From a virus (Duplodnaviria; Caudoviricetes): a stretch of 64,000 nt of DNA. Under the pieces are notes generated by a model. It did not search any database. It had not been told where the DNA came from and saw nothing but the letters and a program-made list of their open reading frames with translations. A program made the position numbers and the translations under genes. Position 1 is the stretch's first letter. Each line of letters starts with the position of its first letter. This document shows, piece by piece, positions 3,196 to 57,738 of this stretch. The stretch is taken from IMG/VR virus record IMGVR_UViG_3300025867_000005; one strand, given 5' to 3'.

Positions 3196-3366
3196 ATGAA
3201 TAAAGAAGAAATCTTGTTTAAGACAGTTAAGGCGCTTACGATTTACGGATGGCAGGTTAAAGAAACTGAAGAAGGGTGGCTTTGGACTTCCGCGACAGAC
3301 GAAAAGATTCTCTGTCAAGACTGTATCGAAGACATCCCTGTTTTCCCTGAAGGATTTGAACCTTAA
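3196..3366 (+). CDS. hypothetical protein
   Basis: AAGGAG SD before ATG 3196. Confidence 0.65.
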   Translation: MNKEEILFKTVKALTIYGWQVKETEEGWLWTSATDEKILCQDCIEDIPVFPEGFEP

Positions 3367-3376
3367 GGAGACAAGA

Positions 3377-3886
3377 ATGAACGAATTTTCTATCAGGTGT
3401 GTAAAAGAAGGAAAAGAATTCCTAATCTATTCGGATACAGAGACCGGAACTAAAATAGGTTTGGAATATCTTAAGGACATTTGCAAATCTGATGATTTTA
3501 CGCACGGCAATGCGGAACTTTTCCCGTGTAACGGCAGCAGTGAACGGTGGGGTATCCGTTGCATTCCAAAACGTTAGGATGATCTAGACTGGACACGAAT
3601 AATGACAATGCTTTCACGCGGTTTAAAACCATACGGAAATATCAAAGACGGAAAACAAATCCGTATTATTAGCCATATCCGTAAAGATAAGATTGAAATT
3701 TCAGAAGAGGAATACGACGAATATGTCTGTGATGTTTACGTAGACCTCTTCGGTGATTTTTATATGCCTAGTTTTTGTTTGGATAGAGGGATTGAATGCC
3801 GCCTATCCTGTCTTTCAGAAGATGGATATCGGCGCTCCTACGATTATCGACGAATTGTAAATTATGAACGGATTTGGAAAGAATGA
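3377..3886 (+). CDS. hypothetical protein(s): 3377..3577 and 3602..3886 are in frame, separated by one TAG (3575-3577)
   Basis: AAGGAG SD before 3377; weak SD before 3602; frame continues DDLDWTRI. Confidence 0.55.
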
Positions 3887-5349: not shown

Positions 5350-5479
5350 TTATGTCGCATTTTTGGGAATTTCTTGGTAGAAGCATGTCTTTCGGAATGT
5401 CGGAAGGAACTGTTACAGGATTCCGAGAATATGGCGCGATTTGTGTAACAGGAATATAGTCAATGTGTTATATTTTTAA
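5339..5479 (+). pseudogene. 46-codon ORF interrupted by in-frame TAG (5378-5380)
   Basis: AAGGAG SD; MKVDYVAFLGISW*KHVFRNVGR...YF; fills the gap up to the next promoter. Confidence 0.4.
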
Positions 5480-5834: not shown

Positions 5835-6304
5835 AGATACTTTTTCTAGACATTGATGACGTGCTTAACCATTACGGGTGTGAAGACAAAATCAAACATG
5901 CGGACGGAAGTCCCTACTATGCCCCCGGAACGGACAAAGCCTATCGCGGGATAGATGATAACCGTTTGGAATTTCTCAAAGAAATCCTTTACAAAACAGG
6001 GTGCAAAATCGTCGTCTGTTCCTCTTGGCGGGATGATCCTGTTTGTATGGATTATCTAAAGAAACGTCTTGGTAAAGACGCAGATCGTATTATAGGAAGT
6101 ACAGTCATTTCACAAGGCAAACTTTCTAGAGCTGATGAAATTAGAGATTGGCTTTCTAAAAATACTGATGTCGAAAAATTTGTTGTTCTTGATGACAGCG
6201 AGTGGAATGATTTGGAAGGTTTCGGAGACCGTTGGGTTAAACCTGAGACCTTTAAAGGTATGGATGAAACGCATATGGATGCGGTAATAAAGAAACTCTC
6301 TTAA
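5831..6304 (+). CDS. HAD-family phosphatase (RNA-repair 'Swiss army knife' type)
   Basis: ILFLDIDDVL, IVVCSSWR, R-DEI--WL, FVVLDD motifs. Confidence 0.85.
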   Translation: MKILFLDIDDVLNHYGCEDKIKHADGSPYYAPGTDKAYRGIDDNRLEFLKEILYKTGCKIVVCSSWRDDPVCMDYLKKRLGKDADRIIGSTVISQGKLSRADEIRDWLSKNTDVEKFVVLDDSEWNDLEGFGDRWVKPETFKGMDETHMDAVIKKLS

Positions 6305-6310
6305 ACCCCA

Positions 6311-6338
6311 TTGACAGTAGAACATTTTTTAGTATCTT
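6311..6338 (+). promoter_or_regulatory. sigma70-like early promoter
   Basis: TTGACA-16-TATCTT. Confidence 0.65.
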
Positions 6339-6375
6339 ATTGTCATGGAAACAAAAACGGTGAAAGGAACAAATT

Positions 6376-7185
6376 GTGAAAAATGATGCTTTTGGGGATA
6401 GGATGAAGGCTTATGAAGCCGCGACAGAAATCAATCTGATGCCGGGCCTTCCGGTTGTGGCAAGAATTGACGGAAGAAGCTTCCACACCTTCACACGGGG
6501 TATGAAAAGACCTTATGATGAAGGCATGTCAAACATGATGATAGATACCGCAAGGCGTCTTGCGATTGAAACGAATCCCGTCATTGCCTATACACAGAGT
6601 GATGAAATTACACTGATTTGGTACGCAGAGGGGAAATCACAGATTTGGTTTAACGGCAGGCACAGTAAGATGGTTTCTAACCTTGCCAGTCTCGCGACTC
6701 TGTATTTCTATCAGAGTTGTATGTGGCATAAACCCGACTATTGCACGAAGAACCCAAGCTTCGATTGTCGTGTATTCGGTGTCCCTACTAAGCAGGAAGC
6801 TTGCAACTGCCTGATCTGGAGAGAACAGGATGCGACGAAGAATGCCGTATCGATGTCGGCAAGGGCGTATTACAGCGACAAGGAATGTCACGGCAAAAAC
6901 GGAAGAGAAAAGCAGGAAATGCTTTTTCAGAAGGGTGTCAATTTCAACGATTATCCCCGTTTCTTCCGTAGAGGAACAATCCTTGTACCGGTTACAAAGA
7001 CGCACGGACGGGATGAATTGGATCTTTCTAAGCTGGGTCCGAAGCATCCTGCAAAGAACAATCCTAATTTCACCTTCGAACGGACGGAATGGGAATCTGT
7101 CGATTGGCCGGTTTTGACAAAGATCAGTAATCTCGTAGATATCATTTTTGACGGAGCGGTTCCGTGTACGAAAGCAAGCAAGTAA
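6376..7185 (+). CDS. thg1: tRNA(His) guanylyltransferase Thg1-like protein
   Basis: RMKAYE, RIDGRSFHTFT, YTQSDEI, FDCRVF, WREQDATKN motifs; GTG start with AAGGA SD. Confidence 0.93.
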   Translation: MKNDAFGDRMKAYEAATEINLMPGLPVVARIDGRSFHTFTRGMKRPYDEGMSNMMIDTARRLAIETNPVIAYTQSDEITLIWYAEGKSQIWFNGRHSKMVSNLASLATLYFYQSCMWHKPDYCTKNPSFDCRVFGVPTKQEACNCLIWREQDATKNAVSMSARAYYSDKECHGKNGREKQEMLFQKGVNFNDYPRFFRRGTILVPVTKTHGRDELDLSKLGPKHPAKNNPNFTFERTEWESVDWPVLTKISNLVDIIFDGAVPCTKASK

Positions 7186-30344: not shown

Positions 30345-30384
30345 AATTTGATATCCACTCTCTTTGAAAGAGGGGAGATTAGAC

Positions 30385-33300
30385 ATGATAAAGAAACTGA
30401 TTCTTGCCGCTTTTATGGCATTCGCGTTAGACGCATATTCAGAAACTAGCATTAAAGATTGGCTTTTGACCTTAAAGGCTAGTTCTGAACAGGCTGCTGC
30501 CCATATCGGGACGGCTTGGAAACACCTTACATCTGAAGAAAAGATTCGGGTTGGCAATGCCGTAACCAATCATCAAGATACCGTTGATTTCGGAGATATA
30601 AATATCTCTGGCACTACTATCAAGAGAAGCGCTCCAGAAGATTACTGGAAATCAATCACAATCCCAAGTTTGTCAGTCTTGGATACCGCATGGATCGGAA
30701 CCGTTTCCGTCAATAATTCGATCAGTGATCAATCATGGGGAAACACAAAAATAGCTTGGGATTATCAGCGCGGTCTTGTGTTTTCAACCTCCCCGTATTT
30801 GGGTGTTCAAACAGAAAGAGCGATTATCGGACTGGATGGTAACGTCGGGATATCTAACAACCTTCTTGTCAGTGGTTACGGACAGGCGGGAGGAATCCTT
30901 CTGTCGAACGGGACGGTAGTTCTTCCGGTAAACGGTGCCACGATGACAGAACCTGGGCAAATCGGATGGGATTCCGTATGGCAGACGCCTTCCATTAGAC
31001 TTAACGACCATGTAACCGGACAGATTTTCATGGAAGATTTCGTTTTCGTCACCAACATTACAGATATCGCTATTCCTGACGGTGCGGCGGTCTATGCGAT
31101 CGGGGTCGCAGGAAATTATCAATGTGTCTATCTTGCTACTTCTACAAATATCCTTTGCAGAACCGCGACGAAGGGTTTGACAACCGAACCGATTCCCCCA
31201 CACGGAAGCGGACATGTAACTGTTCGAGGAGGTGTCAACTTCAGTGACACCTCTATGTTTGAAGTCAAAGATGTCGTTTATCTCTCAACGACTCCGGGCG
31301 TCCTTACTTCTGTTTTGCCTCAATTTCCAGAAGACCAAATTTCTATGGGTAGTGTAGATATCGTATCTTCGACAACCGGGCGTATCAGTGTCAATATCCG
31401 TGCGATTGACAGAAAAGAAGAAAACCTTGTCGGAACCCTTTATGCCTACAATTCTAAACTTTCAGATATCAATGGTTATCATCTTCTTTCCAACGAATTT
31501 GAAAGTGTTGAAGGATATACGACATACACGACTAACGGAGTGACTAACGGACAAACGGTAATTTCTTATCTTTCTCCTGTTTCCAGAGTTACTACTTTGG
31601 CAGGAGGTGTATCGGCGACAATACGGATTTATTCAACAATAAACAAAGACGGTAATAATCCCGGAGGATTGACCGCTAAGTTGTCCGTTTATACAACGAA
31701 CATGACGGTTTTGGCATCCTATACTTCAGGATATCTTGGTTTGGATCAGAACGAAATAAAACGAGATGTGCAAATTTCAATCCTTAGCAACCAGACTTTT
31801 ACCGTTCCCGTAAGGTTCTCTTTAGACCTTATTGCACAGCATACATCAGCGACTAGAAATTATTCTGTATTTGCGGAAGACGGAAGGCCGTTAAGTGTAG
31901 AAGTTCCTCTTCCTTCCGGACAGTTTGCTTTCCGAAGCGATTTGGAAAACTATGTCCTTAAAACGACATATAACGCCGGTATGTCAAATAAACTTGATGT
32001 TTCAAACGGCACGGCGACAAATCTTACGGTTGTCAAGCCGCTTATCGTCAAAGGGACAGACCATTCGAATCAAGACGTGTTCTTCCCTCAGTCAAACGGC
32101 GTACAGGTTGTAGGCGACCCGGATCAGGATTTATTCTACGGACTAGGCGGAACAATAGGAAAGCCCGCTTGGTGGATGCAGACCTACAGGAACGAAAACA
32201 GTTCTGGAACCAACAGCCCGGAATTCATGTATTTCAGCAATGCCAGAATCGCCAAAGACATCATGATTCTTTCCGAAGGCGGTAGAATGTCAGTCAACAA
32301 GACATCGAATATCCTTGACTATCACAGCGATTACCAAGGATATCAAATGGGAGCGCTCAATGACTTGAAGTTTAGCGGAGTATATTCATATTCCAAACAG
32401 AGGAAATATGATGTCTATATTTCAAGTCTCGGGAATCCAGACAGATGGAGCTGGAAAAAGAGTTATGACAATGGGTTGACATGGGTAGAGTCTGGTGTCA
32501 CAAATGAATGCTCAACAACAAATATGGTTGTTGAAAACGGTGTCCGTGTAAGTTTTGATTATGTCACTGGACACAATCTTCATGATGCGTGGATAAGAAC
32601 CGGATATGCCCAGCTTCCACCAGCTACCGTTCATATGGCACCACAGGCATATGAAGAAATAGGGTTCACGACCAACTACAACAATGAAAGCGGATGGGAA
32701 GACCTTACCTATACAATGGCGTCTACAGTGCATTCCAGTGACAGGTACGCATTGACAAATACATCTTCTGCCATTTATCTCGGAAGGGGAATAAAAATGA
32801 ATTCCACCTTCTACAATCTTGCGGAATACGGTGTCGGCCTTGCGCTTGTTTTCGAATATTGGAACGGAAGCACATGGATGCCGATTACCGTAGGCAGTCA
32901 TCATCTTAGTGACGGAACCGCCAATTTCACCCAGTCAGGACAGGTGTCTTGGGACAAATTCCTTATTTCCGATTGGAAGACAGGGGGTGTGACAAAATAC
33001 AGCGGAGAAGATTTGTTCTGGCTTAGAGTCCGCACTTCCGTAACTCCTTCCATCCCGGCGAAAATCAAGAACATTACCCCTCAGGGAAAAGTGAGATTCG
33101 GAATAATGGGAAGACAGTACGATGACGATTACAGCTTTTATGTTGACGGTTTCGGAAGCAGCTATCAGATCAAGGGTTATCAGTCTGATACCGGTTCTAC
33201 TTTTGAAGCCAACCAGCTTATTACCGCCGGGGCCGTCAATAAGCTTCTTGATGCCTTCAGAACCTTCAATTTGTATTTTTCTACGAATTTCAATCCTGTT

Positions 33301-36300
33301 TCAGCCCCCAACAGATTGCTGACTTCAATGGCAGTGCCGGTTTGGAAAACCACAACGGCATTAAGCCCAGGCACAAACCTTGTCGCCTGTTTTGTTTCTA
33401 CGAACACCATAGGGAGCACCTTGATTCCGGCAGGAACCAAGTATTCAACAACTTATTACGCTTCTAAAACAACGTCTCAGGGAGCAAACGCCTATTGGGA
33501 ACTTATCGAAGTAGGCGACGGAATCACAAACGTTATTGCAAGTTCAGCGGAAACTCCACTTGTTCAGACGACTCCTACCATCATTTCCACATCCGTATAT
33601 CCGGCAACGAACTTCAACGTACAGTCATCCCATTATCTCGGCGTAAGAGTTTACGGAATTCGTCCGGGAAATGCCGTAAGCATGGTGCTTTACGGTGGCG
33701 GCAATTACGGGTCTTCTCTTTCAAGTCCAAGCGTCGGAACTACAGGCGGCGGGGCGGGAATTATAGACGCACCCTTAGACGGAATAGCTTACGGAAGGAA
33801 GAATCAGACTTGGGTCCAGGTCTTGGAACCCAACGGAAGCGGAGCTTCACTTAGCGGTGTCGTAAAGGAAACAGATCCTAAATATGTCAACGCCCTTACC
33901 AACGAAACAGATTCAAAGGCTCTTTCTTCTCTTGCGGATTTCGCCGCAACAAATCAGGCCAAAGCCGTTTATTCCCAAGACGGGGGACAATGGATAGACG
34001 CTACTGGTGGCGTTTGGAGAATCTATACTAATGTCTGGAAACTTACGCTTTCAGATATGGGAATTTCTATGGTTATCCCGAACCTTGGAAACCCTCTTCC
34101 TTCTTCTCGGTTTGAGATTTCAAATGTCAGTGGGGTCACCGGATTGACGTTTGTTGTAGCTCCTAGAGACGTAGGAATTGATGTCGTCGGGTTTGCTTAT
34201 CTACACAATAATGAAATGAGTTATTGGGAAGATGATTCTGTTCCTCTTGCCGAAACAAATATCATATTGGACACTTTTATCGGAAGTTTCCCTCAGAATC
34301 CAGGATATTTGAGATACGAAGCGATTGCGACCCAACTTGTAGACGGAGTTGTTTTCAAAAGTGATACCACAAACTTTGCGACAGCCGCACAGGGATTGAA
34401 GGCAGATACAGCTATTCAATCGGCTTACGGCATCACTGTTTCTTCAAACAATTTTGTTGTCGGTGTCGGCACTAGAAACACAACGATATGGCCTAACCAA
34501 ATTACTGTTTCTCAGGCGGCTGGTGTCAGCGGAGGTATAGATTCGGACGGGTTGTTTGAAAACTTTAATACCCCTCCTTATACCAGACATTTTGATTTCC
34601 CTTTAACAGCAGGTATCCTCGCCAGCCTCGCGGATGTCACGAACAGGACTGTCAACCAGATCATAATGACGACAAACGCTATGGGAATGGCCACGAATAT
34701 GAGATGGAGGGAATCCTCTGTATGGAAGTCCTATCCTTTAGGCGGCGCTTCAGAACTTCCTACCGGAGTAATTACCAACGGCTATCTTGGTGACATAGGA
34801 TTCACCAACAATCTTACGGTAGCAGGAACTAATTTCGCATCTGTATTTAATTCGGCTTCAGGAGACTTCTATCTACAGGGAACGAATTTCGGACCAAGGA
34901 TTGCAAACAGTATTACAAACGGGATGAACGAAATAACTTTAGGAGGTATTGTCCTGAGCAATGATACCGTTAATGGAGATTACGGTAATTTTACATATTC
35001 TGTTCAGTTAGGGAATCTTTCAAGCATTCAGCATCGGTCGGCTGACGGGAATGACATGATTTTCTCAGGATGGTCAAGTGATTTTAGTCACGCCTTCGAC
35101 CGTTTCAGATTATTTGCAGACGGAGGGGCTATCTTCCCTACTGGAAACGTTTATACCGTAAATTCCGGAACCATCACCAATCAGGTCGTTGTTTCCCCTG
35201 TCGGAAGCAACCAGGTTTCCCAACTTTGGAAAGGCAGCAATACGGAATTTCAGGCTCTAGTCGTTACAGATCCGAATAGCCTCTATGTTGTCTCTGATGA
35301 CAACAGCGTATACAGTGACAATGGAATCTATCATCCGGTAGAAACCTACAATGTATTCCTTGCTCCTGTGACGACCATTGTCTCGCTCGCACAGGATAAG
35401 ACGGTTTACAGAATCAACGTCGATACGAATGCCATTCTTGCAGTAGATTCTTCAGCCATGAATCTAACAGATAGGGAAGCAAAATTTGACCTCGAATTGA
35501 ATGTTTCGGAACCCAACCTTCCTATCAGTTTCGTCGGGTTTGAATTCAGTCAGACTCCTGACCTTTCGGCAACGGGGATATACAGATACGTATGTAATGT
35601 TATTGACAACCAGAAAGTCATTGTAACCATCCCTACTATTACCGGTCTAGCCTATGTTCCTTATACCGGAGCCACAGGCACCGTTGATATCGGAACCAAT
35701 TCAATCAAGATCGGAGGCAACGCCCTTGTCGACAAAGTTCTGACGGTAAACGGATATGCAGAGGTTTCAAACAGGATAGAACTTCTTGGACCAGGAAGTT
35801 ATATCGGAGGTTTGGATGTTCTTTCAGGAGATTATTCTGGAAGCACGAAAGCTGTGTCTGGAACCTTCCTTTATCAAGAGCTGTACACTTCTTTCACGAA
35901 TTCCGTTACGAATTCAATGCAGATTTCAGATCAGCATCTTTCCCAGATGTTGCAAACGAATATCAATCCTAGAATTCTGTCTGTTGAGTCAAATTCCTTG
36001 GAATTTTCAGAATGGCTGCCTACAAACACATATGTAAAAGTGGAAGAAGATCCGATTGCCGGACCCAGAATCACAGAACTCGAAAACCATACGAATAACT
36101 GGAACCAAGCTTATTCATGGGGAAACCATGCGGTTGCCGGATATCTTCTGATTTCTGACTTCACGGAATGGAAATCCACAAATACCTATGTGAAGACGGA
36201 AGTAGATCCACATTTCTTCGAATGGCTGGGAACAAATACTTATCCGAAGACAGACAGCGGGGCTTCAGCCTTCCGCTATTACAACTACGGAAATCCGGAA

Positions 36301-37065
36301 ACGGAAGAAAGTCCGGAAGCGTGGTTTACATTCGATGCCGGAACCATCACAGCATTCGATTATGTCGCGGGAAGAGAAAAGGTTGTCATACCTTGGGAAA
36401 TCGGAGGTGTGCCTGTTGTGAAAATCGGGAATTCAGCGTTTTCAGGAGATTCGATTACCAACGTCTATGTTCCTAGAAGCGTGACGAATATCGGAAATTC
36501 GGCTTTCATGAACTGCGCCAGTCTTGCGGCTGTCTATTATTCCTGTGACGTTCCCGTTGAAGGAGTCGGAATATTTCTGTCTGCCCCCGGCGTTACAAAC
36601 TATATCGTCAATCTGTTTGCCAAGAACTGGGGAACGGAATACGGAAGCCGTCCTGTCGTAAGGGCATCTGTCTATTCCGACAGCTTCTATCAAGGTGGCC
36701 AGCTTGTAGCGACGACGCAATACGTCAATCAGGTTATTTCTTCAACGATATCTCCTGAAACCGACCCCTATATGGAATGGACGGGGCAGGTCGTTCCAAG
36801 CGGAAGCAGCGCAACAATTACGGCGGCACACGGAAGTCTTCCTTATCTTATCCTTACGAGGACGACTACCTTGTCTATAGATTCAACTGGCTTCGGCACA
36901 TCTGGCGTCAGTAGGATTTCTTTAAGCGTTCAGGCTGGAAGTTATACCTTGAATATGGACGAAAATATCACGCTATCGACAGAAATAAGTCTCCCTACTA
37001 CAGGGTGGGGAACTATTTTGTTGCGTAGAGTATCAAACGATGCATGGAAGGCGGCACAACTTTGA
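30385..37065 (+). CDS. very large tail-fibre-like protein with signal peptide and C-terminal BspA-like LRR segment
   Basis: GGAG SD before ATG 30385; DAPLDG.AYGRK..W, FATAAQG.KADTA, YVPYTGAT, ETDP motifs; VIP.EI.G.PV..IG..AF. Confidence 0.75.
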   Translation: MIKKLILAAFMAFALDAYSETSIKDWLLTLKASSEQAAAHIGTAWKHLTSEEKIRVGNAVTNHQDTVDFGDINISGTTIKRSAPEDYWKSITIPSLSVLDTAWIGTVSVNNSISDQSWGNTKIAWDYQRGLVFSTSPYLGVQTERAIIGLDGNVGISNNLLVSGYGQAGGILLSNGTVVLPVNGATMTEPGQIGWDSVWQTPSIRLNDHVTGQIFMEDFVFVTNITDIAIPDGAAVYAIGVAGNYQCVYLATSTNILCRTATKGLTTEPIPPHGSGHVTVRGGVNFSDTSMFEVKDVVYLSTTPGVLTSVLPQFPEDQISMGSVDIVSSTTGRISVNIRAIDRKEENLVGTLYAYNSKLSDINGYHLLSNEFESVEGYTTYTTNGVTNGQTVISYLSPVSRVTTLAGGVSATIRIYSTINKDGNNPGGLTAKLSVYTTNMTVLASYTSGYLGLDQNEIKRDVQISILSNQTFTVPVRFSLDLIAQHTSATRNYSVFAEDGRPLSVEVPLPSGQFAFRSDLENYVLKTTYNAGMSNKLDVSNGTATNLTVVKPLIVKGTDHSNQDVFFPQSNGVQVVGDPDQDLFYGLGGTIGKPAWWMQTYRNENSSGTNSPEFMYFSNARIAKDIMILSEGGRMSVNKTSNILDYHSDYQGYQMGALNDLKFSGVYSYSKQRKYDVYISSLGNPDRWSWKKSYDNGLTWVESGVTNECSTTNMVVENGVRVSFDYVTGHNLHDAWIRTGYAQLPPATVHMAPQAYEEIGFTTNYNNESGWEDLTYTMASTVHSSDRYALTNTSSAIYLGRGIKMNSTFYNLAEYGVGLALVFEYWNGSTWMPITVGSHHLSDGTANFTQSGQVSWDKFLISDWKTGGVTKYSGEDLFWLRVRTSVTPSIPAKIKNITPQGKVRFGIMGRQYDDDYSFYVDGFGSSYQIKGYQSDTGSTFEANQLITAGAVNKLLDAFRTFNLYFSTNFNPVSAPNRLLTSMAVPVWKTTTALSPGTNLVACFVSTNTIGSTLIPAGTKYSTTYYASKTTSQGANAYWELIEVGDGITNVIASSAETPLVQTTPTIISTSVYPATNFNVQSSHYLGVRVYGIRPGNAVSMVLYGGGNYGSSLSSPSVGTTGGGAGIIDAPLDGIAYGRKNQTWVQVLEPNGSGASLSGVVKETDPKYVNALTNETDSKALSSLADFAATNQAKAVYSQDGGQWIDATGGVWRIYTNVWKLTLSDMGISMVIPNLGNPLPSSRFEISNVSGVTGLTFVVAPRDVGIDVVGFAYLHNNEMSYWEDDSVPLAETNIILDTFIGSFPQNPGYLRYEAIATQLVDGVVFKSDTTNFATAAQGLKADTAIQSAYGITVSSNNFVVGVGTRNTTIWPNQITVSQAAGVSGGIDSDGLFENFNTPPYTRHFDFPLTAGILASLADVTNRTVNQIIMTTNAMGMATNMRWRESSVWKSYPLGGASELPTGVITNGYLGDIGFTNNLTVAGTNFASVFNSASGDFYLQGTNFGPRIANSITNGMNEITLGGIVLSNDTVNGDYGNFTYSVQLGNLSSIQHRSADGNDMIFSGWSSDFSHAFDRFRLFADGGAIFPTGNVYTVNSGTITNQVVVSPVGSNQVSQLWKGSNTEFQALVVTDPNSLYVVSDDNSVYSDNGIYHPVETYNVFLAPVTTIVSLAQDKTVYRINVDTNAILAVDSSAMNLTDREAKFDLELNVSEPNLPISFVGFEFSQTPDLSATGIYRYVCNVIDNQKVIVTIPTITGLAYVPYTGATGTVDIGTNSIKIGGNALVDKVLTVNGYAEVSNRIELLGPGSYIGGLDVLSGDYSGSTKAVSGTFLYQELYTSFTNSVTNSMQISDQHLSQMLQTNINPRILSVESNSLEFSEWLPTNTYVKVEEDPIAGPRITELENHTNNWNQAYSWGNHAVAGYLLISDFTEWKSTNTYVKTEVDPHFFEWLGTNTYPKTDSGASAFRYYNYGNPETEESPEAWFTFDAGTITAFDYVAGREKVVIPWEIGGVPVVKIGNSAFSGDSITNVYVPRSVTNIGNSAFMNCASLAAVYYSCDVPVEGVGIFLSAPGVTNYIVNLFAKNWGTEYGSRPVVRASVYSDSFYQGGQLVATTQYVNQVISSTISPETDPYMEWTGQVVPSGSSATITAAHGSLPYLILTRTTTLSIDSTGFGTSGVSRISLSVQAGSYTLNMDENITLSTEISLPTTGWGTILLRRVSNDAWKAAQL

Positions 37066-46651: not shown

Positions 46652-47139
46652 TAGTTACCCGTACTTCCGAATCCGTTGCCGCTTCTGATGGTGTTCAAGG
46701 CATCCATATCTTCCCCGCTTATTTCAATAGTCAAAGGAGATTCAAACCTGACGACGACCAATTGCGCGACTTTATCTCCTTTATTGACGGTATAAACACT
46801 GGTTCCGTGATTGATAAGGATTACCTTCAATTCGCCAGTATATCCGCTATCCAAAATTCCCGGTGCGTTTCCTACCGTCAAGGAATATTTGCTGGCCAAT
46901 CCCGATCTCGGGCAAACCAAGCCGACACATCCGGAAGGGATTTTCACACGGCATCCAGATCCGATTGTTACAGATGTTCCAGGTATGATGACGGAATCCT
47001 CATTGCTGAAGATGTCAAATCCTGCATCCCCCGGAAGCGCCTGAAGAGGGATTTTGGCACCTTCTCCTATTTTAGCTACTTTTATTTCCGTTATTCCGTT
47101 CCTCTTGCAGGCACAATCTTCAATTTGTTCTCTCGGCAT
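46651..47139 (-). CDS. dut: dUTPase
   Basis: DAGFDI, PRSGLA, GILDSGYTGE, GDKVAQL, RSGNGFGSTG. Confidence 0.96.
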   Translation of the reverse strand: MPREQIEDCACKRNGITEIKVAKIGEGAKIPLQALPGDAGFDIFSNEDSVIIPGTSVTIGSGCRVKIPSGCVGLVCPRSGLASKYSLTVGNAPGILDSGYTGELKVILINHGTSVYTVNKGDKVAQLVVVRFESPLTIEISGEDMDALNTIRSGNGFGSTGN

Positions 47140-47230
47140 TTTAGACCTTTCCTTTTTTTGATAGTTCATACCCATTATAGACGGCAAACCTTAAGTTTTC
47201 AGATCAGCCGTCAGCAAAGCGGAGAAAAGG

Positions 47231-49132
47231 ATGTCATTACAAATAACAGAAAAGGATTTCAGATTTTACTTGTTTATGTTAAAACAAGTTTCTTCTGCCT
47301 ATGCCACCGCTCCCGATCTTGATTTCAGCGGGATGACAACCAAAAAATTCTATGACAGTATTTATGAAAACGGAGTGGCATCTGTTTGTGTTCCTCTTGT
47401 AAATTCAACAAATGCCTGTGACAATATTAACTATGTCTACGATCTTACTTCTTTTTCCCTATATCTTACAGCGATTGATAATGCCTTCGAGACATATTTT
47501 TCTGATTTTGGAAACGGAATCACATCCATAGGAACATTTATGTTGGCGAATGACCTTTCTGTCAACCAAGTAACTGACAGTTTCTATTACGACATAGTAG
47601 GTACGCATTTCTATTCCGGAACAGTTTTCAAACCAGAAGGAACGGTGCATTATACCTACACATATGATACAGAAACAGATTCTTGGACTGGTGCGTATAC
47701 AAACAGAACCTATACGGGAACCGTTTATTCTCATTCCTCAACTTCCGGTCTGATGACTAAGCCTCAGAAAATGAAACTTTCAGCAAGTCTTTCAGACCTT
47801 CTGGTCCTTGCTACTTTTGAAACAGAAGGTGAAGATTACAAGATGATTGCTTTCCTGGACAGTGACGGAACCGCCGTAACTACTGAAACAGAAGTTATTG
47901 GACTTTCTTCCATTGAAATCTTGAATCAACAGACAAACGATTTAAAAGATATCGCGCTTCTTGACGGTTGCAACATTCAAGTCAAATATACAACCGATTA
48001 CGAACTATCCGACAGTTTTACAACGGTTGCAAGTTCTTCCACAACGCTTACCCACGGAACACGGATAAAGGGGAGCACAGGATCTTACATCATTCAGAAC
48101 CAGGATTTTAAATACCTTCTGTTTGCAGAACCTGCTGAAGGATATTATTTTACTGGCTGGACAAACGGCGGAGCCAATCCCAAATATCAGTCTTATCCTG
48201 ATGCTGAGGACGTACCTTTGTTTTCTGCATATGTCAATGTCTCATCCAGCACCGTTTTAGACGGGACAACGGGAACGGTTTCAGATATCTCTATTGATTA
48301 TATCGGCAAACAACCAAAGACAAGTGGAACCCAGCAATTCATCCCTTGTACCTTCTATCCTACGGCGATATACGATGATACCAAATACATCGTTGTATCT
48401 ATCGGATGGGCTGACAATCTCGGTGCAAGCGGAACCCTGACCAACGGACAATCTTTTGAAATTACAGAAGGACAGACCCAGATTGATTTCACCTTTACCT
48501 TCAAAACAGCGGCGATTGTTTCCATTACGTCTTCCCCTGCTTTAATCCCTGACGGCTACAACCTTCACACGTTGCCAGCGGCATACGTCCTTAATGGTGG
48601 TGGCTATAAGCCTTCGAATGCCGTAGGCGACGTTGTAGACATCAAAGCGTGGCTTGCAGAAAACCTTCCTTCTTCTATCTATGTTTTCAACAGATGGTCA
48701 GATGCAGAAGCCGGCAATTATTCGGCGATCAAAGCTTCCCAAACCCTGACGGCTGAAAACAGTTTTCAAGTCGAATTGGTCAATCTCGGGGCAAGTCCTG
48801 TGGAACATACGATTGTTCTGACGGCCGGTAACACATATCCGAATTTCAAGGTCTATGACTATACCAACTTGAATAGTAGCGGTTCTCCGACAGAACTCCA
48901 AAAAACGATAGGTGGTAATCCGGAAATTCCTTATGCCGTTTATCACGGTGCCAATATCCTGTTCCGTGTGTCACAAGGCGGTTCTGGGTTGGAAATGTTC
49001 AAGTTCACAATCAGTCTTGACGGTAATGTCATCCATACAGAATCCGGCAATCCGAACACCTGGACATATGACATTGTTATGACTGCTATTTCCGCAAATC
49101 ATACAATCGGATTATTGATTGAAAACATTTAA
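47231..49132 (+). CDS. putative virion structural protein (633 aa), Ig-like/InlB-B-like repeats
   Basis: Thr/Ser/Tyr rich; AEPAEGYYFTGW; N-terminal domain paralogous to 49146. Confidence 0.7.
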   Translation: MSLQITEKDFRFYLFMLKQVSSAYATAPDLDFSGMTTKKFYDSIYENGVASVCVPLVNSTNACDNINYVYDLTSFSLYLTAIDNAFETYFSDFGNGITSIGTFMLANDLSVNQVTDSFYYDIVGTHFYSGTVFKPEGTVHYTYTYDTETDSWTGAYTNRTYTGTVYSHSSTSGLMTKPQKMKLSASLSDLLVLATFETEGEDYKMIAFLDSDGTAVTTETEVIGLSSIEILNQQTNDLKDIALLDGCNIQVKYTTDYELSDSFTTVASSSTTLTHGTRIKGSTGSYIIQNQDFKYLLFAEPAEGYYFTGWTNGGANPKYQSYPDAEDVPLFSAYVNVSSSTVLDGTTGTVSDISIDYIGKQPKTSGTQQFIPCTFYPTAIYDDTKYIVVSIGWADNLGASGTLTNGQSFEITEGQTQIDFTFTFKTAAIVSITSSPALIPDGYNLHTLPAAYVLNGGGYKPSNAVGDVVDIKAWLAENLPSSIYVFNRWSDAEAGNYSAIKASQTLTAENSFQVELVNLGASPVEHTIVLTAGNTYPNFKVYDYTNLNSSGSPTELQKTIGGNPEIPYAVYHGANILFRVSQGGSGLEMFKFTISLDGNVIHTESGNPNTWTYDIVMTAISANHTIGLLIENI

Positions 49133-49145
49133 TTAGAGAGAAAAT

Positions 49146-51047
49146 ATGGCAACAACACTTACAAAACAGAATCTAGCGAATATCTTTGACAGGGTTCTCG
49201 ACATCTTCGACACTTTGAAATCTGAACAAGATTCTCTGTTCACGGCAATACAGACTTGCAATATTGACTTGGCAAGTCATTTTTCTTATCGTGGAGAGGC
49301 GGACATAGAAGCACCGTTGATGCTAGCGCTTCAAAATTACAGGGATTATGTCAAGACCTGCACGACAGGATATACAAGCCTTTCAAGGTATGCTCAATTC
49401 CGCACCATGTTCACAGCATTCAGTACGTATTTCAGAACAGAGACCGTGCTTACCGACAAAACAATTAACGGGTTCATGGCTTACAACGATCTTAAGGTTT
49501 CAGACAAAGTAAATAGGATCTACCAAGGGATAACGGGCAATTACCTTCAGGCGAGAAACGTATTGCCTCCTGAAGACATGGCTTTCGCTTCGGCGGTTTC
49601 CGTTATCCCTTCCATTGGCGCAGATCCGATATGGCAGATTTCATTACCTGAAACTTCAGTTTTCAACAACACAAGTTATGTCGCTACTTCTGTAACGGGT
49701 AATACCTATAGTCCTTTCCCGATAAAAATAGTTCCGTCTGCTGAACTTACAGGGGTTGTTTTTACTTTGACATGGAGTGACGATACAACCACGACTTTTG
49801 ATTTCTCCTCAACGACACTCCCGGTATCCGGCTATTATGTAGAGACTTATCATTCCGGAATAAAGTCAATCGCTTTGGTTTCGGGAGTTATAGGAAACAT
49901 AGGCTTGACCTTCTATACGAATTTCACATACGTAAAATTCTTGTCACCTTTGGGATGGTGCAATCCTGGTGAAGAAATGATTCAAGCATATTTAACGGAT
50001 GTCAACGGTATCCGTTTGTTTTTCGGCAATACCCAATTCGTTCCGAAGAACGTTTTGGCACAACTGTATCTAAGGATAAAGCCGTCTCTTTTGGGAGACC
50101 TTAACGGTACATTCTTTATAGGAAACACACAGCTTAATTTAGGAACGGATGATGGAACCGGTTGGTATGTTTCCACGACAGAAATAACACCGACAGCGGT
50201 TGTCAATGTTCAGGCAAAGTCATTAGAAATAGCGCCTCTTCCTGGTGGACCTGTAGCGTAGTCTTTCACCGGGACCGTAGACGGAAGTTTTGAAAACCAA
50301 AACAATTACACTCCTGTTGGAACACCGACATCTATAGACACTGTAGAAGTAACAGTCGGACAGCCGTCTGGACTTTCGGGAACTCTTGCTTGTTCTTCTT
50401 TGAACCAATCAGGAAATTTTTCTTCAGCGATATTTAGAGAATCTGCAACAAACAATGGCAACATAACAGGACTGGCATCCTTCTATCCTGGAGGTAGTTT
50501 GGGTTCTTGAAGTTATCCTTCAAATAGTGGTGGAACTTGTGCTGCCGCTCAGTGTTTTTGGCTTCAAGCGGATAATGACTTAGGTGGAACCGTTACCAAT
50601 GAATATTATTGGGGATATCTTGACAATCCAAATCCTTCAACAGACTTTACTTACGTAGATGTCGGTGATTATATTGAAATAACGGATTCTTTTGCAATGA
50701 ATGAAAATGTTATTGTCCCATCTACAATTGACGGGAAATCTGTAACAACTATTACTATTAACCCTCAATCATATATGAAGACTCTGTATTTGAATGAGGG
50801 AATAACATTGTTTAAACCCTGGTTTTCAGACACTCTGATAAAAAACATAAGTGTTCCGGCAAGTATAGAAACAATTGAACCTGGTATATGGAATGCGCCT
50901 GTTTCAGTTGCCATGTTTTTTGAAGGTAACGCTCCTTCTTGTTTAGGGACTCCCGGTGGCGACAATGGTATTGTTATCTACCGACACACTGGTTCTACCG
51001 GGTTTGATGTAGCCCCTTGGAATGCTTATCCACAAATTGTCTACTAA
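49146..51047 (+). CDS. putative structural protein with C-terminal BspA-like domain, interrupted by in-frame TAG (50259-50261) and TGA (50508-50510)
   Basis: one frame from 49146 to TAA 51047 with only these two stops; DFTY......IEIT.....NVIVPSTIDGKSVTTI spans the 50697 ATG. Confidence 0.7.
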
Positions 51048-51062
51048 GGCAACTGAATATGC

Positions 51063-51254
51063 TTACCAGCCGTTTGCTTTTGCAATGAAGTAAAACACAA
51101 CGGCGATCAAAACTGACAGTGGAAGGAATGTCGTTGACAGGACTTCCGCCTGTCTAGAATACTTTTCAAATCCTTCTTTTTCCGACAGGATTGACAGAAT
51201 AAGGACGATGGCAGAAACAACAAAAAACGGGATACAGACGACAAGCTTAATCAT
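51063..51254 (-). CDS. small membrane protein (2 TM)
   Basis: AAGGA SD; two hydrophobic stretches. Confidence 0.65.
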   Translation of the reverse strand: MIKLVVCIPFFVVSAIVLILSILSEKEGFEKYSRQAEVLSTTFLPLSVLIAVVFYFIAKANGW

Positions 51255-51438
51255 TTTTTCCTTCTTTCCTGTTAAAACGTAGATATGATGCCGCAGTTGT
51301 TTCTCCGAAATCAAAAGCCCTGCCGCAATATTTCTTCGCGATTTTCCTTTTGACATCCGCTTCATCTACGGCTTCCCAAAAATCAAACATTCCGGTTTCG
51401 AAAACCGTACTCCAAAAATATCTCATTTCTTTATGCAT
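51247..51438 (-). CDS. hypothetical protein
   Basis: packed ORF. Confidence 0.6.
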   Translation of the reverse strand: MHKEMRYFWSTVFETGMFDFWEAVDEADVKRKIAKKYCGRAFDFGETTAASYLRFNRKEGKND

Positions 51439-51441
51439 GTT

Positions 51442-51861
51442 TTACTTCCCGAGGATATCTGACAGGGTATCGCTGTCAAGCATTGGATCAGCCTACCGGT
51501 TTTGCCCCTGACAGGCATAGACATCTTTTTCACCATCGCTATGCCGGTATAGGATATATACGTTATTCGGATGCCGTTTACCAGAAACCTGTCCGATACA
51601 AGAACTCCCGATTTGAACATAAAGGAAGCGTCCGTCTTTCTTCATTGTCAGAGTCACTTCTCCACTGACTGCAACGCCGCCGCGATTCACGGATACGAAA
51701 TCCCCACGATCACGGGAGTTAGTCCAACCCCAAACCGCGAGATTGATACCTACGGCCTTAAGAAAGGCTTTGGTTTCACGCAAGAACTTATCCTTGGTGA
51801 AGTCATCATAGGAAACACAAGGGCCACATCCCCAATCTTTTGTCAAAGTCTTTGCATTCAT
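51442..51861 (-). CDS. phage protein (N.GG.AVSGE.TL motif); in-frame TAG at 51493-51495, frame continues to TAA 51442
   Basis: AAGGAG SD before ATG 51861; the extension ends 3 nt before the next ATG. Confidence 0.65.
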
Positions 51862-51887
51862 TCTTTTCTCCTTGTTTGAATAAACAC

Positions 51888-51916
51888 AAGGTATCACAAA
51901 GAGATGGATTTGTCAA
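51888..51916 (-). promoter_or_regulatory. sigma70-like early promoter
   Basis: TTGACA-17-TACCTT, TG extension. Confidence 0.75.
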
Positions 51917-51922
51917 TAGGGA

Positions 51923-52177
51923 TTAAGAATCCTGTCCTAAGATTTCAAGAGTATAGATGCTTCCTTCTTCTGTACAGAAGGTAAGGATGTCATCTAAAAC
52001 ATCTGTTTCTGTCACCTTGGAAGTAGTTACGTACCTCGTAATCTCCAAACCCAAGACATTGCTTTTCATCGAAAAGCGTTTTCCGACAGACGGAAGGACT
52101 TCCGTTTCTCCTTCTACGGAAATAACAGGAAGATTTCCGTTCGTCTTTCCGTCAACAACCGTCAACTTAACTTTCAA
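51923..52177 (-). CDS. hypothetical protein
   Basis: TTG start with AAGGA SD. Confidence 0.65.
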   Translation of the reverse strand: MKVKLTVVDGKTNGNLPVISVEGETEVLPSVGKRFSMKSNVLGLEITRYVTTSKVTETDVLDDILTFCTEEGSIYTLEILGQDS

Positions 52178-55103: not shown

Positions 55104-57494
55104 TCAATCGTTGTCGGGATCATCTGACATCATCACGATTTTCGGTTGAAAAATTCCACAAATCCCAACCAAATCCTTTTGCGCATCCATCACACCGGCA
55201 ACATCTTTATAGGCCATCGGGCATTCATCTAACCCACCATCAAGGAGTTCTACGCCTTTGGCATTAAGGAATTCCTGCATCTCCTTCTTCGAGAAAGTTT
55301 CCTTTGCCTGTTTTCTCGACATCGTGCGTCCGCTTCCGTGACTACAACTGCAAAGGCTGGCTTCATTTCCATTTCCTTTGACGTAGTATGAAGGCGTTCC
55401 CATACTTCCGCCGATTAAGGCTTCTTGGTTCAATTGGGCCTGAACCGCACCTTTTCGATGGACAATCACATCCATTTCCTTGCCATTGATAATGTGTTTT
55501 TCTTTCCAAGCGAAATTGTGATTCGTAAAAACGGTATAAGACGGACTCAATCCCAAGAATTTACTGATACGGTAATGAATCATTTCATGGCTCACTCTTG
55601 CGAAAGCCGCACACAATTCCATCGCCGCCCAATATTCTTTACCGCTATCGGTGTCCAAATCAAGCCACGCCCAACCATGAAAATCCTTGTTGTCAAAATT
55701 TTCGCAAGCGAGTTCATGGTAAAGTTTGGCGATCTTATATCCGACACCACGGCTACCGCTATGGCTAAGCAATGCAAGGTTAGGGATATCTCCGTCAATC
55801 ATTTCTGTAAGTGTTCCGAAGTCTACGAAGTGATTCCCGCTTCCCGAAGTACCGATCTGGTTTTCGGCGAGCTTTTTGATGTTGTATTTCTTCAACATCG
55901 GGATATCAGTCCACAGACTGCTTTCAAGAACTGTGGTTTCAAATCCACTGGGAATGAGGCCCTTCTTCTCATTCAATCCCACACCGAAGCAGGTCTGTTT
56001 CTGCAAAGCGTCCTTCATCTTCATTCTGAAAGCGTTATTCCTTTCAGGGAAACTTACTCCTTCGAACACTGACATTTTCATGCTACAATTATGCACAAAA
56101 ACGCCGCTCGCAAGCGCAAAATTATGGAAATCTTCAACTTCCAAACAGAATACATCTGATTTTCTGTCGATTTTATTTACAGAAATAACTTTGTGGTTGT
56201 TATGTTTATGCTTCTTGTGATTATATAAGCCGATATTGCTTTTAACAAGTTCTCCGCAAATATCACAAGCACGTAGTTTATTCGCAATTTCTTTCCGGAT
56301 AACTGACGCTCTTTCTGTTTGCAGGAATTCTTTTAAATACTTTTTTCCCCTTTGTCCGTTCCCACTGACAATTTCTTTGAATTCTACTGGGTGTTCTTTT
56401 TGGAACTTTAATGAATTTTCCCTCGCAATAGACTGTTTTTTAGCCTTAAATCTTTGATCATAAAACCCATCTTTTTTAAGCTTTTTTATTCTATTGTTTT
56501 TAAATTCTTTACTCCTAAGAAAATCGATTCTTTCTTTCGCATGTAAAGAAGAATGATCTTTAGTGGACATTATGCGTAAATTTTCTGGACGGTTATCATA
56601 TTGATTTCCATTTGCATGATGGATAACAAATCCTTTTTCAAGTTTTCCGTTATAAATTTCAGAAACAAAAGAATGTGTTCTTTGCGTTTTCTTTACATTA
56701 GGCTGATAGATGTATTCATATCCATCTCTATCTGAGTATGAACGATAAAATGGCATAAGGCTATCTTTATATACTAAGTTCTGCGCTTCTTTATACCTAC
56801 CGTCTCTTAGCATAAATAAGTGATCTGGCGTACAAACAATTTCTTCCCCTCCAGAAATTCTTACAGAAACTAGACTTGCATTCTCTTTCACCTTAAACGC
56901 TTTCGCCTTCGCCGGAACAATCATCCCGCTATTATTAATAGAATATACCCAAAAACTTTCAATTTCATTGGTCAATTCTTTAAAACTTTTCTGAGTCCCG
57001 TCTAGCATCGCGACTCTTGTTTCAGGAGGAAAACAGGAAATATCCACTCCTACGGCATTAGGAATAACTTGGTTTGCAGTAGCAAGGATTCCCCCAATCG
57101 GCAAAGAATAACCCTGATGCGCGTCACTAGAAAGGGCACCAGCAACGGCGACAGGTAGCCGCATAGCGGTAATCATCTGATCAATCGCACCCTGTTCAAT
57201 ATGTTCCTTGCCGAAGATATTGAAGGGGAGATTTTCATTCCTGAGTTGAATGTTCTTCTTCTCTTTTTCTTCTTTGTAATCGAAGAACACTTTCATCAAA
57301 TCCAAACTTGCCGGGCAATCTCCGTGACAAGTGTTGATTTTCTTAGGAAGTTTACCGCTAAGGAAGCCTTCACAGATTTGACGGATTCCTTGCTCTGTAA
57401 AATCTCCGTTTGTGTTGATAATCTTTAGAAGCCGTCCAAAATAAGAATCAGGAAGCATTCCCAACGTGATTAAAAAGTCGCCTTTGATCTTCAT
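55104..57494 (-). CDS. rtcB: RtcB RNA ligase containing an intein
   Basis: DAHQGY.LPIGG, PNAVGVDI-(intein)-C, GTSGSGNHF, SHSGSRG, HNFA, VHRKGA, GSMG, SHGSGR, DE.P.AYK; start ATG 57494 with AAGGAG SD. Confidence 0.95.
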   Translation of the reverse strand: MKIKGDFLITLGMLPDSYFGRLLKIINTNGDFTEQGIRQICEGFLSGKLPKKINTCHGDCPASLDLMKVFFDYKEEKEKKNIQLRNENLPFNIFGKEHIEQGAIDQMITAMRLPVAVAGALSSDAHQGYSLPIGGILATANQVIPNAVGVDISCFPPETRVAMLDGTQKSFKELTNEIESFWVYSINNSGMIVPAKAKAFKVKENASLVSVRISGGEEIVCTPDHLFMLRDGRYKEAQNLVYKDSLMPFYRSYSDRDGYEYIYQPNVKKTQRTHSFVSEIYNGKLEKGFVIHHANGNQYDNRPENLRIMSTKDHSSLHAKERIDFLRSKEFKNNRIKKLKKDGFYDQRFKAKKQSIARENSLKFQKEHPVEFKEIVSGNGQRGKKYLKEFLQTERASVIRKEIANKLRACDICGELVKSNIGLYNHKKHKHNNHKVISVNKIDRKSDVFCLEVEDFHNFALASGVFVHNCSMKMSVFEGVSFPERNNAFRMKMKDALQKQTCFGVGLNEKKGLIPSGFETTVLESSLWTDIPMLKKYNIKKLAENQIGTSGSGNHFVDFGTLTEMIDGDIPNLALLSHSGSRGVGYKIAKLYHELACENFDNKDFHGWAWLDLDTDSGKEYWAAMELCAAFARVSHEMIHYRISKFLGLSPSYTVFTNHNFAWKEKHIINGKEMDVIVHRKGAVQAQLNQEALIGGSMGTPSYYVKGNGNEASLCSCSHGSGRTMSRKQAKETFSKKEMQEFLNAKGVELLDGGLDECPMAYKDVAGVMDAQKDLVGICGIFQPKIVMMSDDPDND
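56088..57035 (-). mobile_element. intein (316 aa) with HNH homing endonuclease and C2H2-like Zn finger
   Basis: CFPPETRV..LDG block A, CTPDH.F block B, HH..G...DN..ENL, CDIC..H...H, VFCLEVE..HNF....VFVHN|C; AT-richer than flanks. Confidence 0.93.
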
Positions 57495-57522
57495 GTCTTT
57501 TATCTCCTTTGTTATGCCGTAT

Positions 57523-57551
57523 ACTATATAGAATTTTATCCTACTTGTCAA
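57523..57551 (-). promoter_or_regulatory. sigma70-like early promoter for rtcB
   Basis: TTGACA-17-TATAGT. Confidence 0.78.
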
Positions 57552-57738
57552 TACCGTCAAGACACAAATCAAGACTATCTCCCATTTTATAGAAAGATCG
57601 TCCGTTTTTATCCCACATCAGGTTCTTGATTCTGATTTTAGGGACTTCCTTGATAACAACCTGACCACGATAGGGATATTCTGTTTCTCCTTCTACCGTC
57701 CTGAAATTGATGACCCTTTTCCCTGATTTAGTTTGCAT
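57541..57738 (-). CDS. hypothetical protein
   Basis: GGGGA SD; W...G.......LDL motif. Confidence 0.65.
   Translation of the reverse strand: MQTKSGKRVINFRTVEGETEYPYRGQVVIKEVPKIRIKNLMWDKNGRSFYKMGDSLDLCLDGIDK

Follow-up and report, generated by a model that had tools for sequence, protein, structure and literature searches.

The gene at positions 49,146 to 51,047 of the 64,000-nucleotide stretch of phage DNA analysed here (hereafter, the window) has probably undergone a recent nonsense truncation, which would leave a 371-aa protein without its leucine-rich-repeat (LRR) tip of the BspA type. This looks like the ordinary shedding of a binding tip that the phage can do without, and not a new way of decoding stop codons. 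An earlier note on this DNA had proposed recent nonsense decay as one of several readings of the two in-frame stops, and this reading agrees with the relatives of the gene, in which both positions are occupied by sense codons, for Tyr and Trp.

In the proposed sequence of events, the ancestor would have carried a single gene for a modular fibre-like or adhesin-like protein, in which two single-base nonsense mutations would have occurred, from TAT (Tyr372) to TAG, and from TGG (Trp455) to TGA. Translation would now end at the TAG, giving a product of 371 aa that would retain the conserved N-terminal helical bundle and two beta-sandwich domains, while the beta-rich shaft and the putative ligand-binding tip, formed by BspA-type leucine-rich repeats, would be lost. 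The 786 nt downstream would then represent a young, untranslated remnant. We infer both the termination at the TAG and the frequency of this allele.

The phage itself is uncultured, has a genome of 304 kb, and comes from an anaerobic digester. Its gene content suggests a giant phage, with a large tRNA operon and genes for giant fibre-like proteins, an NAD-dependent DNA ligase, a dUTPase, and an RtcB that carries an intein and an HNH nuclease. A blastn search with positions 47000-52000 against the phage collection returned no match, and neither did a scan of IMG/VR for exact patterns of this phage.

Layout of the interrupted gene

Read in a single frame, 49146-51047 comprises 633 codons and is interrupted internally by just two stops (Table 1), and the frame, coordinates, and sequence contexts reported in the earlier note proved exact on retranslation. 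The frame runs on after the TAG for 262 codons without a frameshift. Neighbouring reading frames in the same phase are common in the window, where 10 of the 77 ORFs have an open extension of at least 50 codons, and it is the homology to an uninterrupted gene of 747 aa in a related phage that places the continuity of the 633 codons beyond chance. Judged by this homology, the ORF that ends at the TAG, the gap that follows it, and the downstream ORF of 116 aa are all parts of one ancestral gene.

Table 1. Coordinates of the interrupted gene, its parts, and the related features discussed in the text.
Feature	Position	Strand	Remark
Upstream 633-aa partner gene	47231..49132	+	Weak InlB B-repeat-like match
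Present-day ORF, 371 aa + TAG	49146..50261	+	Likely expressed product; 371-aa gene in public assemblies
In-frame TAG	50259-50261, codon 372	+	Replaces conserved Tyr
Remnant segment 1, 82 codons	50262..50507	+	Start of beta-rich, shaft-like region
In-frame TGA	50508-50510, codon 455	+	Replaces conserved Trp
Remnant segment 2, 178 codons + TAA	50511..51047	+	Conserved linker, then short BspA-type leucine-rich-repeat tip
Linker in remnant segment 2	codons 456-500	+	89% amino-acid identity to orthologue
BspA-type leucine-rich-repeat tip, ~135 aa	~codons 499-633	+	Downstream of both stops
116-aa ORF	50697..51047	+	Gene-finder call; same frame as 49146..50261
Terminal stop TAA	51045-51047	+	Ends the 633-codon frame
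Third in-frame stop, TAG	51495-51493	-	Near end of neighbouring 134-aa gene, opposite TAT (Tyr)
747-aa orthologue in related phage	L005:4882-7125; L007/L008 G001:C2:76911-79154		TAT and TGG at the stop positions

The start codon assigned to the downstream ORF, the ATG at 50697, falls within the LRR domain, in its N-terminal cap, and the alignment to the intact orthologue spans it without a break. Because this ATG is internal to the cap, the 116-aa ORF is probably an artefact of the broken gene, which bears out the doubt that the earlier note had raised about this start. The whole of 49146-51047 is better annotated as one nonsense-disrupted gene, with no protein call for the 116-aa ORF.

The coincidence of length between the read-through product and the upstream gene, both of 1902 nt, had also been remarked upon, as possibly fortuitous. 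The equality itself is correct, but it is a coincidence: the orthologue encodes 747 aa, and the window copy is shorter, in frame, by approximately 114 codons of the repetitive middle region (segment 1), which happens to bring it to the length of the upstream gene. The proteins encoded by the two genes share only approximately 65 weakly similar N-terminal residues, at 28 bits, and the two genes are syntenic in all the relatives.

Two other features of this region were considered and rejected. A minus-strand ORF of 52 aa in the gap (50306-50464) is not homologous to the 52-aa ORF found at the corresponding place in L002, and the equal length is a coincidence. No pair of template and variable repeats was found within 10 kb, and an explanation by a diversity-generating retroelement or repeat was rejected.

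The predicted structure of the protein is modular. The AlphaFold2 model of residues 1-371 (pLDDT 68) has a helical bundle at residues 7-130, followed by beta-sandwich domains at 146-266 and 279-359, and a disordered tail at 361-371. The TAG is accordingly in a linker, with all the folded N-terminal domains upstream of it. The C-terminal part of the read-through product is modelled with a pLDDT of 82-92 over residues 424-489 and 499-633, and of 80-92 for remnant segment 2, and the position of the TGA corresponds to a beta-strand of a domain whose fold is predicted with confidence.

The assignment of the tip to the BspA type is based on several lines of comparison. The C-terminal domain of the orthologue matches the Pfam family LRR_5 (PF13306) at 30.8-34.5 bits, above the cut-off of 27.7; the window copy has no match to this family, even at an E value of 10, and its tip matches P0011, a protein rich in LRR_5 repeats (phmmer, E 9e-33). 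A fold search with the C-terminal model returned nothing at E values of 0.001 or below, and the weak top matches were all structures of BspA-type LRR proteins. No piece of the gene was assigned to a family in PHROGs, or in Pfam above the cut-off, and the Foldseek matches of the N-terminal part were weak and generic, to tandem beta-sandwich or adhesin-like proteins, with a TM of 0.25 or less. The tip shares both its cap and its pattern of repeats with surface proteins such as TpLRR and the cell-surface LRR proteins of Bacteroides, from which it differs in being very short (~135 aa), in having no LRR_5 match of its own, and in lying behind two stops. The gene adjoins a module of giant fibre-like genes, and a similar LRR tip is present in the neighbouring giant protein of 2233 aa. 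The protein may act as an accessory adhesin or fibre borne on the virion.

Relatives and the age of the stops

The most telling comparison is provided by a related phage, recorded as an IMG/VR contig (L005), a JGI contig (L007), and GenBank JALNVE010000002.1 (L008, with the handle G001:C2), the last of which was binned with a genome of the Paludibacteraceae. In this phage, the gene is uninterrupted and syntenic, following directly after the orthologue of the upstream 633-aa gene, and its protein aligns with the read-through product over the whole length. Codon 372, which is TAG in the window, is TAT (Tyr) in L005, while codon 455, TGA in the window, is TGG (Trp). The same residues are found in more distant homologues of full length, P0007 (728 aa) and P0009 (834 aa), with the Tyr in the motif P[VI][AS]Y.F and the Trp in W[ST]YP, and both are also conserved in P0074 and P0075. 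Given the presence of Tyr and Trp in the orthologue and in these homologues, both stops represent single-base changes of conserved aromatic codons. The comparison with related genomes that the earlier note had recommended thus shows that the stops are not conserved.

Synonymous sites are saturated in the N-terminal part, with a dS above 2 and an omega of 0.07 between the window and L005, and in codons 456-500, downstream of both stops, pS reaches 0.54 and omega is 0.075 relative to the orthologue. With P0007 and P0009 as outgroups, 18 changes in residues 373-500 occur in the window alone and 17 in the intact copy alone. The LRR tip was compared with 53 BspA-type outgroups, and the median score was 43.1 bits for the window copy and the intact copy alike.

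No relaxation of selection or decay following the first lesion is measurable in these comparisons; the first lesion is followed by a second stop, but the frame is kept and the rate has not accelerated. As the remnant has not decayed, the stops must be either very recent or read through, and the sequence comparisons as a whole argue that they are recent. The earlier note had associated a pseudogene with sense codons in the relatives together with relaxed selection in this region. The sense codons were found, while the relaxation was not, a combination that fits only very recent breaks. Selection on the extension is itself explained by the intact ancestral state, given the sense codons at both sites in the relatives.

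Three nonsense changes within 1.24 kb, counting one in the neighbouring gene, and not a single indel, make a pattern that is slightly odd for neutral decay; on a rough estimate, one would expect no fewer frameshifts than nonsense changes.

Genetic code, tRNAs, and rival explanations

Genome-wide recoding is absent from this phage. With the standard code (table 11), 92% of the window is coding, and the genes of 1199, 2233, and 811 aa are all open under this table. The ORFs of the window (n = 77) end in TAA in 45 cases, in TGA in 23, and in TAG in nine, which means that TAG and TGA are the normal terminators of 32 of the 77. The search for tRNAs, by ARAGORN and Rfam, covered the window and the 77 kb to its left, that is, 141 of the 304 kb, including the whole of the tRNA operon. 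There are no tRNA genes inside the window. The operon runs from L021:8829 to L019:8771 and contains approximately 34 tRNAs, to which two read by hand can be added, a Phe(GAA) and a Tyr(GUA) that lacks the D-arm. The suppressor tRNAs that the earlier note had suggested looking for did not appear, there being no CUA, UCA, or UUA anticodon among the ~34 tRNAs of these 141 kb.

A census of stops was carried out by tblastn in both directions, between 138.6 kb of the relative (contigs C2, C4, and C19 of G001) and 140.9 kb of the phage, with the exclusion of extensions upstream of true starts and of antisense or alternative-frame ORFs, which accounted for most of the “*” symbols. The genuine in-frame stops at conserved sense positions were the TAG and the TGA of the broken gene and one more, the TAG near the end of the neighbouring gene (Table 1). 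All three lie within 1.24 kb, a clustering that is not what a genome-wide suppressor would give. The TGA aligns with Trp, and TAG aligns twice with Tyr, both of which would also result from single-base nonsense mutations. In this Tyr-rich proteome, 22-37% of the single-base routes to TAG start at a Tyr codon; the probability that two of two TAGs would derive from Tyr is 0.05-0.14, which is not significant, and stops at residues that near-cognate tRNAs would restore are to be expected from single-base nonsense changes.

Two other places in the window were noted. An amber candidate at 5378 was rejected, since its TAG is out of frame with the local ORFs, and a candidate at 3575 consists of two small ORFs in the same frame.

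In recoded phages (Lak, crAss-like, and other gut phages), TAG is reassigned to Gln and TGA to Trp, and the coding density under the standard code is low (Borges et al., 10.1101/2021.08.26.457843). The phage analysed here resembles them in being large and rich in tRNAs, in having an in-frame TAG and TGA in a gene of the late or structural type, and in the alignment of the TGA with Trp. It differs in that two different stops are involved, with TAG at Tyr and not at Gln, in the lack of a suppressor tRNA in the operon, in the high density under the standard code, and in the restriction of the three in-frame stops, in ~140 kb, to a single short interval. Neither the reassignments nor the low density of the recoded phages fits here, which also counts against readthrough. 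Stops in the late genes of a tRNA-rich giant phage may mimic recoding, which calls for caution in genome scans, and one intact orthologue, together with a tRNA census, settles the question.

Functional readthrough would involve the low-level decoding of the stops by near-cognate tRNA-Tyr and tRNA-Trp, by the unusual tRNAs of the phage, or by an unseen suppressor, resulting in a minority form of 633 aa beside the major form of 371 aa. This is unlikely, even though the frame is intact up to the terminal stop, conservation is strong past the second stop, with no acceleration of the rate, both stops replace residues that near-cognate decoding would insert, a second TAG-for-Tyr occurs 1.2 kb away, and the phage encodes the D-arm-less tRNA-Tyr(GUA). 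Two stops in series would multiply the loss of product, however, and the TGA falls in a beta-strand of a folded domain, so that the middle isoform, of 454 aa, would be a broken domain. No significant RNA structure was found in the 100 nt after each stop in comparison with shuffled sequences (z-scores of -1.18 and -0.58 for the TAG and the TGA, and +0.28 for the third stop). The lack of CUA, UCA, and UUA anticodons in the operon, the routine use of TAG and TGA as terminators, and the confinement of the in-frame stops to one locus, when they might have been spread across the late genes, all point in the same direction. The gene of the relative is free of stops, and a broken strain of this relative, L006, uses TAA, which is the tightest of the stop codons. 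The programmed readthrough into three isoforms that was proposed in the earlier note is thus not supported, in view of the serial arrangement of the stops, the mid-domain TGA, the TAA of L006, the lack of a structure after the stops, and the lack of a suppressor tRNA in the 141 kb. It is quite improbable that the three stops are tolerated, or even used, because odd tRNAs such as the D-arm-less tRNA-Tyr(GUA), or a factor encoded elsewhere in the genome, make decoding leaky in infected cells, with Tyr occasionally placed at UAG and Trp at UGA. If this did occur, a small share of the virions would bear the full protein with its LRR tip, and the nonsense codons at the junction would determine, as a form of bet-hedging, the proportions of particles that adsorb and particles that do not. 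A well-known case of programmed readthrough is that of phage Q-beta, in which the UGA of the coat gene is read through to produce the minor capsid protein A1. In both cases, the frame would continue behind a leaky stop, and a structural protein would thereby gain a domain for interaction with the host, but Q-beta has one stop, which is conserved in all its relatives, whereas the orthologue has neither of the two stops found here, one of which cuts into a folded domain.

The other explanations fare no better. The stops might be errors of assembly, sequencing, or consensus, or else minority alleles, in which case the majority gene would be intact, and some room for this is provided by the polymorphism of the related phage population at the site of the TAG linker (L006), and by the frequent variability of receptor-binding genes among strains in metagenomes. 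This is nevertheless a very improbable account, given that JGI contig Ga0116171_10000001 (303,951 bp, sample 3300009692), which has the gene at 5843-6958 and is rotated relative to the contig of the window, is identical in 11,116 of the 11,116 bases fetched. Contigs of 0.2-1 Mb from the JGI, MGnify, ENA, and Logan assemblies encode the 371-aa product without any change, and the 116-aa product also occurs in contigs from these sources, while 5.8 billion protein clusters contain no intact allele of 204-650 aa, and three independent base errors, each creating a stop, would be very unlikely within 1.24 kb. There is only a slim chance that the gene is functionally split, with downstream pieces such as the 116-aa ORF being expressed alone, and either joining the N-terminal protein non-covalently or acting on their own. 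Some phages do encode their fibre tips as separate genes, and the 116-aa ORF has been called in several assemblies, but a product that began at 50697, inside the LRR cap, would be without strands of the cap. Between the TGA and 50697, there is no in-frame start codon, the sequence upstream of 50697 is unlike the AGAGA-rich leader found at the true start of the gene, and no start codon in the middle piece of 82 codons would yield a product long enough to be of use. The least credible explanation is that A-to-I editing of the mRNA restores the sense codons. Each of the stops is one A-to-G change away from TGG, which was the basis for the restoration to Trp proposed in the earlier note, but the ancestral residue at codon 372 is Tyr; the TAG arose from a codon for this residue, which the relative still has as TAT, and TGG was not its source, which makes a restoration to Trp unfitting. 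The only bacterial mRNA editing known to us is that of TadA, which acts on a TACG in a loop; this context is missing at both sites, and no stable hairpin includes either of them.

The module junction and comparable losses

Comparison of the members of the family suggests that the linker interrupted by the TAG is a point of module exchange. One member, P0003 (263 aa), consists of the first part of the family protein alone, and another, P0010 (414 aa), switches to an unrelated tail at this linker. As the TAG lies in the exchange linker, and these members of 263 and 414 aa end nearby, the 371-aa product is probably stable, and the tip would probably be dispensable in the digester habitat.

A parallel case is found in L006 (Ga0172381_10009907), a strain of the relative in which codon 366 has changed from CAA to TAA, at a distance of six codons upstream from where the window has its TAG. 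This strain is otherwise 99.76% identical to the intact strain, and its truncated ORFs, of 365 and 366 aa, are present in a public protein collection. Of all the nonsense changes that could arise in the gene, only 2-3% would hit the linker, and the occurrence of a second nonsense change in such a small target is a hint that truncation exactly at the junction survives. The L006 stop is independent, and it suggests that the phage tolerates losing the tip, or may even gain by it, whether through selection or through neutral change. The gene of the window would be a case from nature in which an uncultured giant phage has shed an accessory binding tip through point mutation at the junction of two modules, and the second, independent case in the related phage population suggests that such tips are expendable in dense digester communities.

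The closest known analogue appears to be the side tail fibre gene of lambda, stf, which is broken in the laboratory strain lambda PaPa and intact in Ur-lambda (PMC2762979; Ur-lambda structure paper, PMC12617516). In both cases, a small mutation inactivates the gene of an accessory host-binding appendage (the “disposable” fibres) and the phage remains fully viable, while the single gene comes to be annotated as two ORFs because of the break, and its intact form is retained in relatives. Loss is also repeated and independent in both, and may be favoured where high adsorption is harmful. Loss-of-function mutations in stf arise quickly, for example, and have the advantage when conditions are crowded and resemble a biofilm (Gallet, Shao and Wang 2009, PMC2762979). 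The differences lie in the type of mutation, which is nonsense substitution here and frameshift in homonucleotide runs in stf, and in the protein, which is unrelated in sequence, without Pfam or PHROG matches, and has a putative place on the virion. The setting also differs, with an uncultured 304-kb digester phage here and a laboratory strain there. The suggested expendability of the tip matches the experiments on the side tail fibres of lambda.

Nonsense changes in and beside the broken gene

The gene that neighbours the broken adhesin- or fibre-like gene also ends at an in-frame TAG, which occupies the site of a tyrosine codon (TAT) in the orthologue of the relative, and beyond which 16 further codons, 8 of them identical, remain homologous up to the common end. 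This stop, which lies within 1.24 kb of the two stops of the broken gene, is a third recent nonsense change. A premature stop is also found in a strain of the relative (L006), where a TAA interrupts the orthologue of the broken gene at the same domain junction, accompanied by a Glu-to-Val change close by and an indel of approximately 390 bp farther downstream; elsewhere this strain is 99.76% identical to the intact one.

Features located in the window and in related sequences
Feature	Location	Strand	Basis or detail
Neighbouring 134-aa gene, stop TAG at 51495-51493	window 51445-51897	-	comparison with the relative's 137-aa orthologue
CAA to TAA, codon 366 of the 747-aa orthologue	L006:3079 (Ga0172381_10009907)		
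2233-aa giant protein	window 30364-37065	+	C-terminal leucine-rich-repeat (LRR) tip at residues 1966-2080
tRNA operon, ~34 genes	L021:8829 to L019:8771 (JGI record ~192,287-211,064)		
tRNA-Tyr(GUA)	L020:4817-4907 (JGI record ~197,419-197,509)		
RtcB RNA ligase gene split by intein	window 55104-57572	-	PHROG and Pfam matches, both halves
Two small same-frame ORFs	window 3356-3886	+	separated by TAG (3575-3577) and 8 codons

Tips of the fibre-like proteins and related phages

The LRR tip of the giant protein resembles that of the orthologue of the broken gene, and the relative encodes a shorter counterpart of this protein (an open frame of 1838 aa), so shuffling of tips seems to occur between the fibre-like genes. 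In a second, more distant phage (L002, L003, and L004, the last being Ga0116171_10126484), which comes from the same sample as the phage of the window, the gene is represented by a 263-aa version (42% identity) consisting of the N-terminal module only.

The genome bin of a “Paludibacteraceae bacterium” (JALNVE01) contains at least 139 kb from the related giant phage (contigs C2, C4, and C19 of L008/G001), and an identical protein has also been assigned to “Omnitrophota”; this may be a hint of the host (Bacteroidota) or plain mis-binning.

The tRNA operon and other features

Small ORFs and genes encoding HNH or zinc-finger nucleases are scattered among the tRNA genes of the operon. Anticodons with A34 are present for Gly(ACC), Leu(AAG), and Arg(ACG); long insertions occur in several of the tRNAs, which are 86–99 nt in length. 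The only tyrosine tRNA seen in the operon, which was detected by neither ARAGORN nor Rfam, has a long variable arm and a D arm replaced by only 10 nt; no tryptophan tRNA was seen there. The intein within the RtcB gene carries an HNH endonuclease domain.
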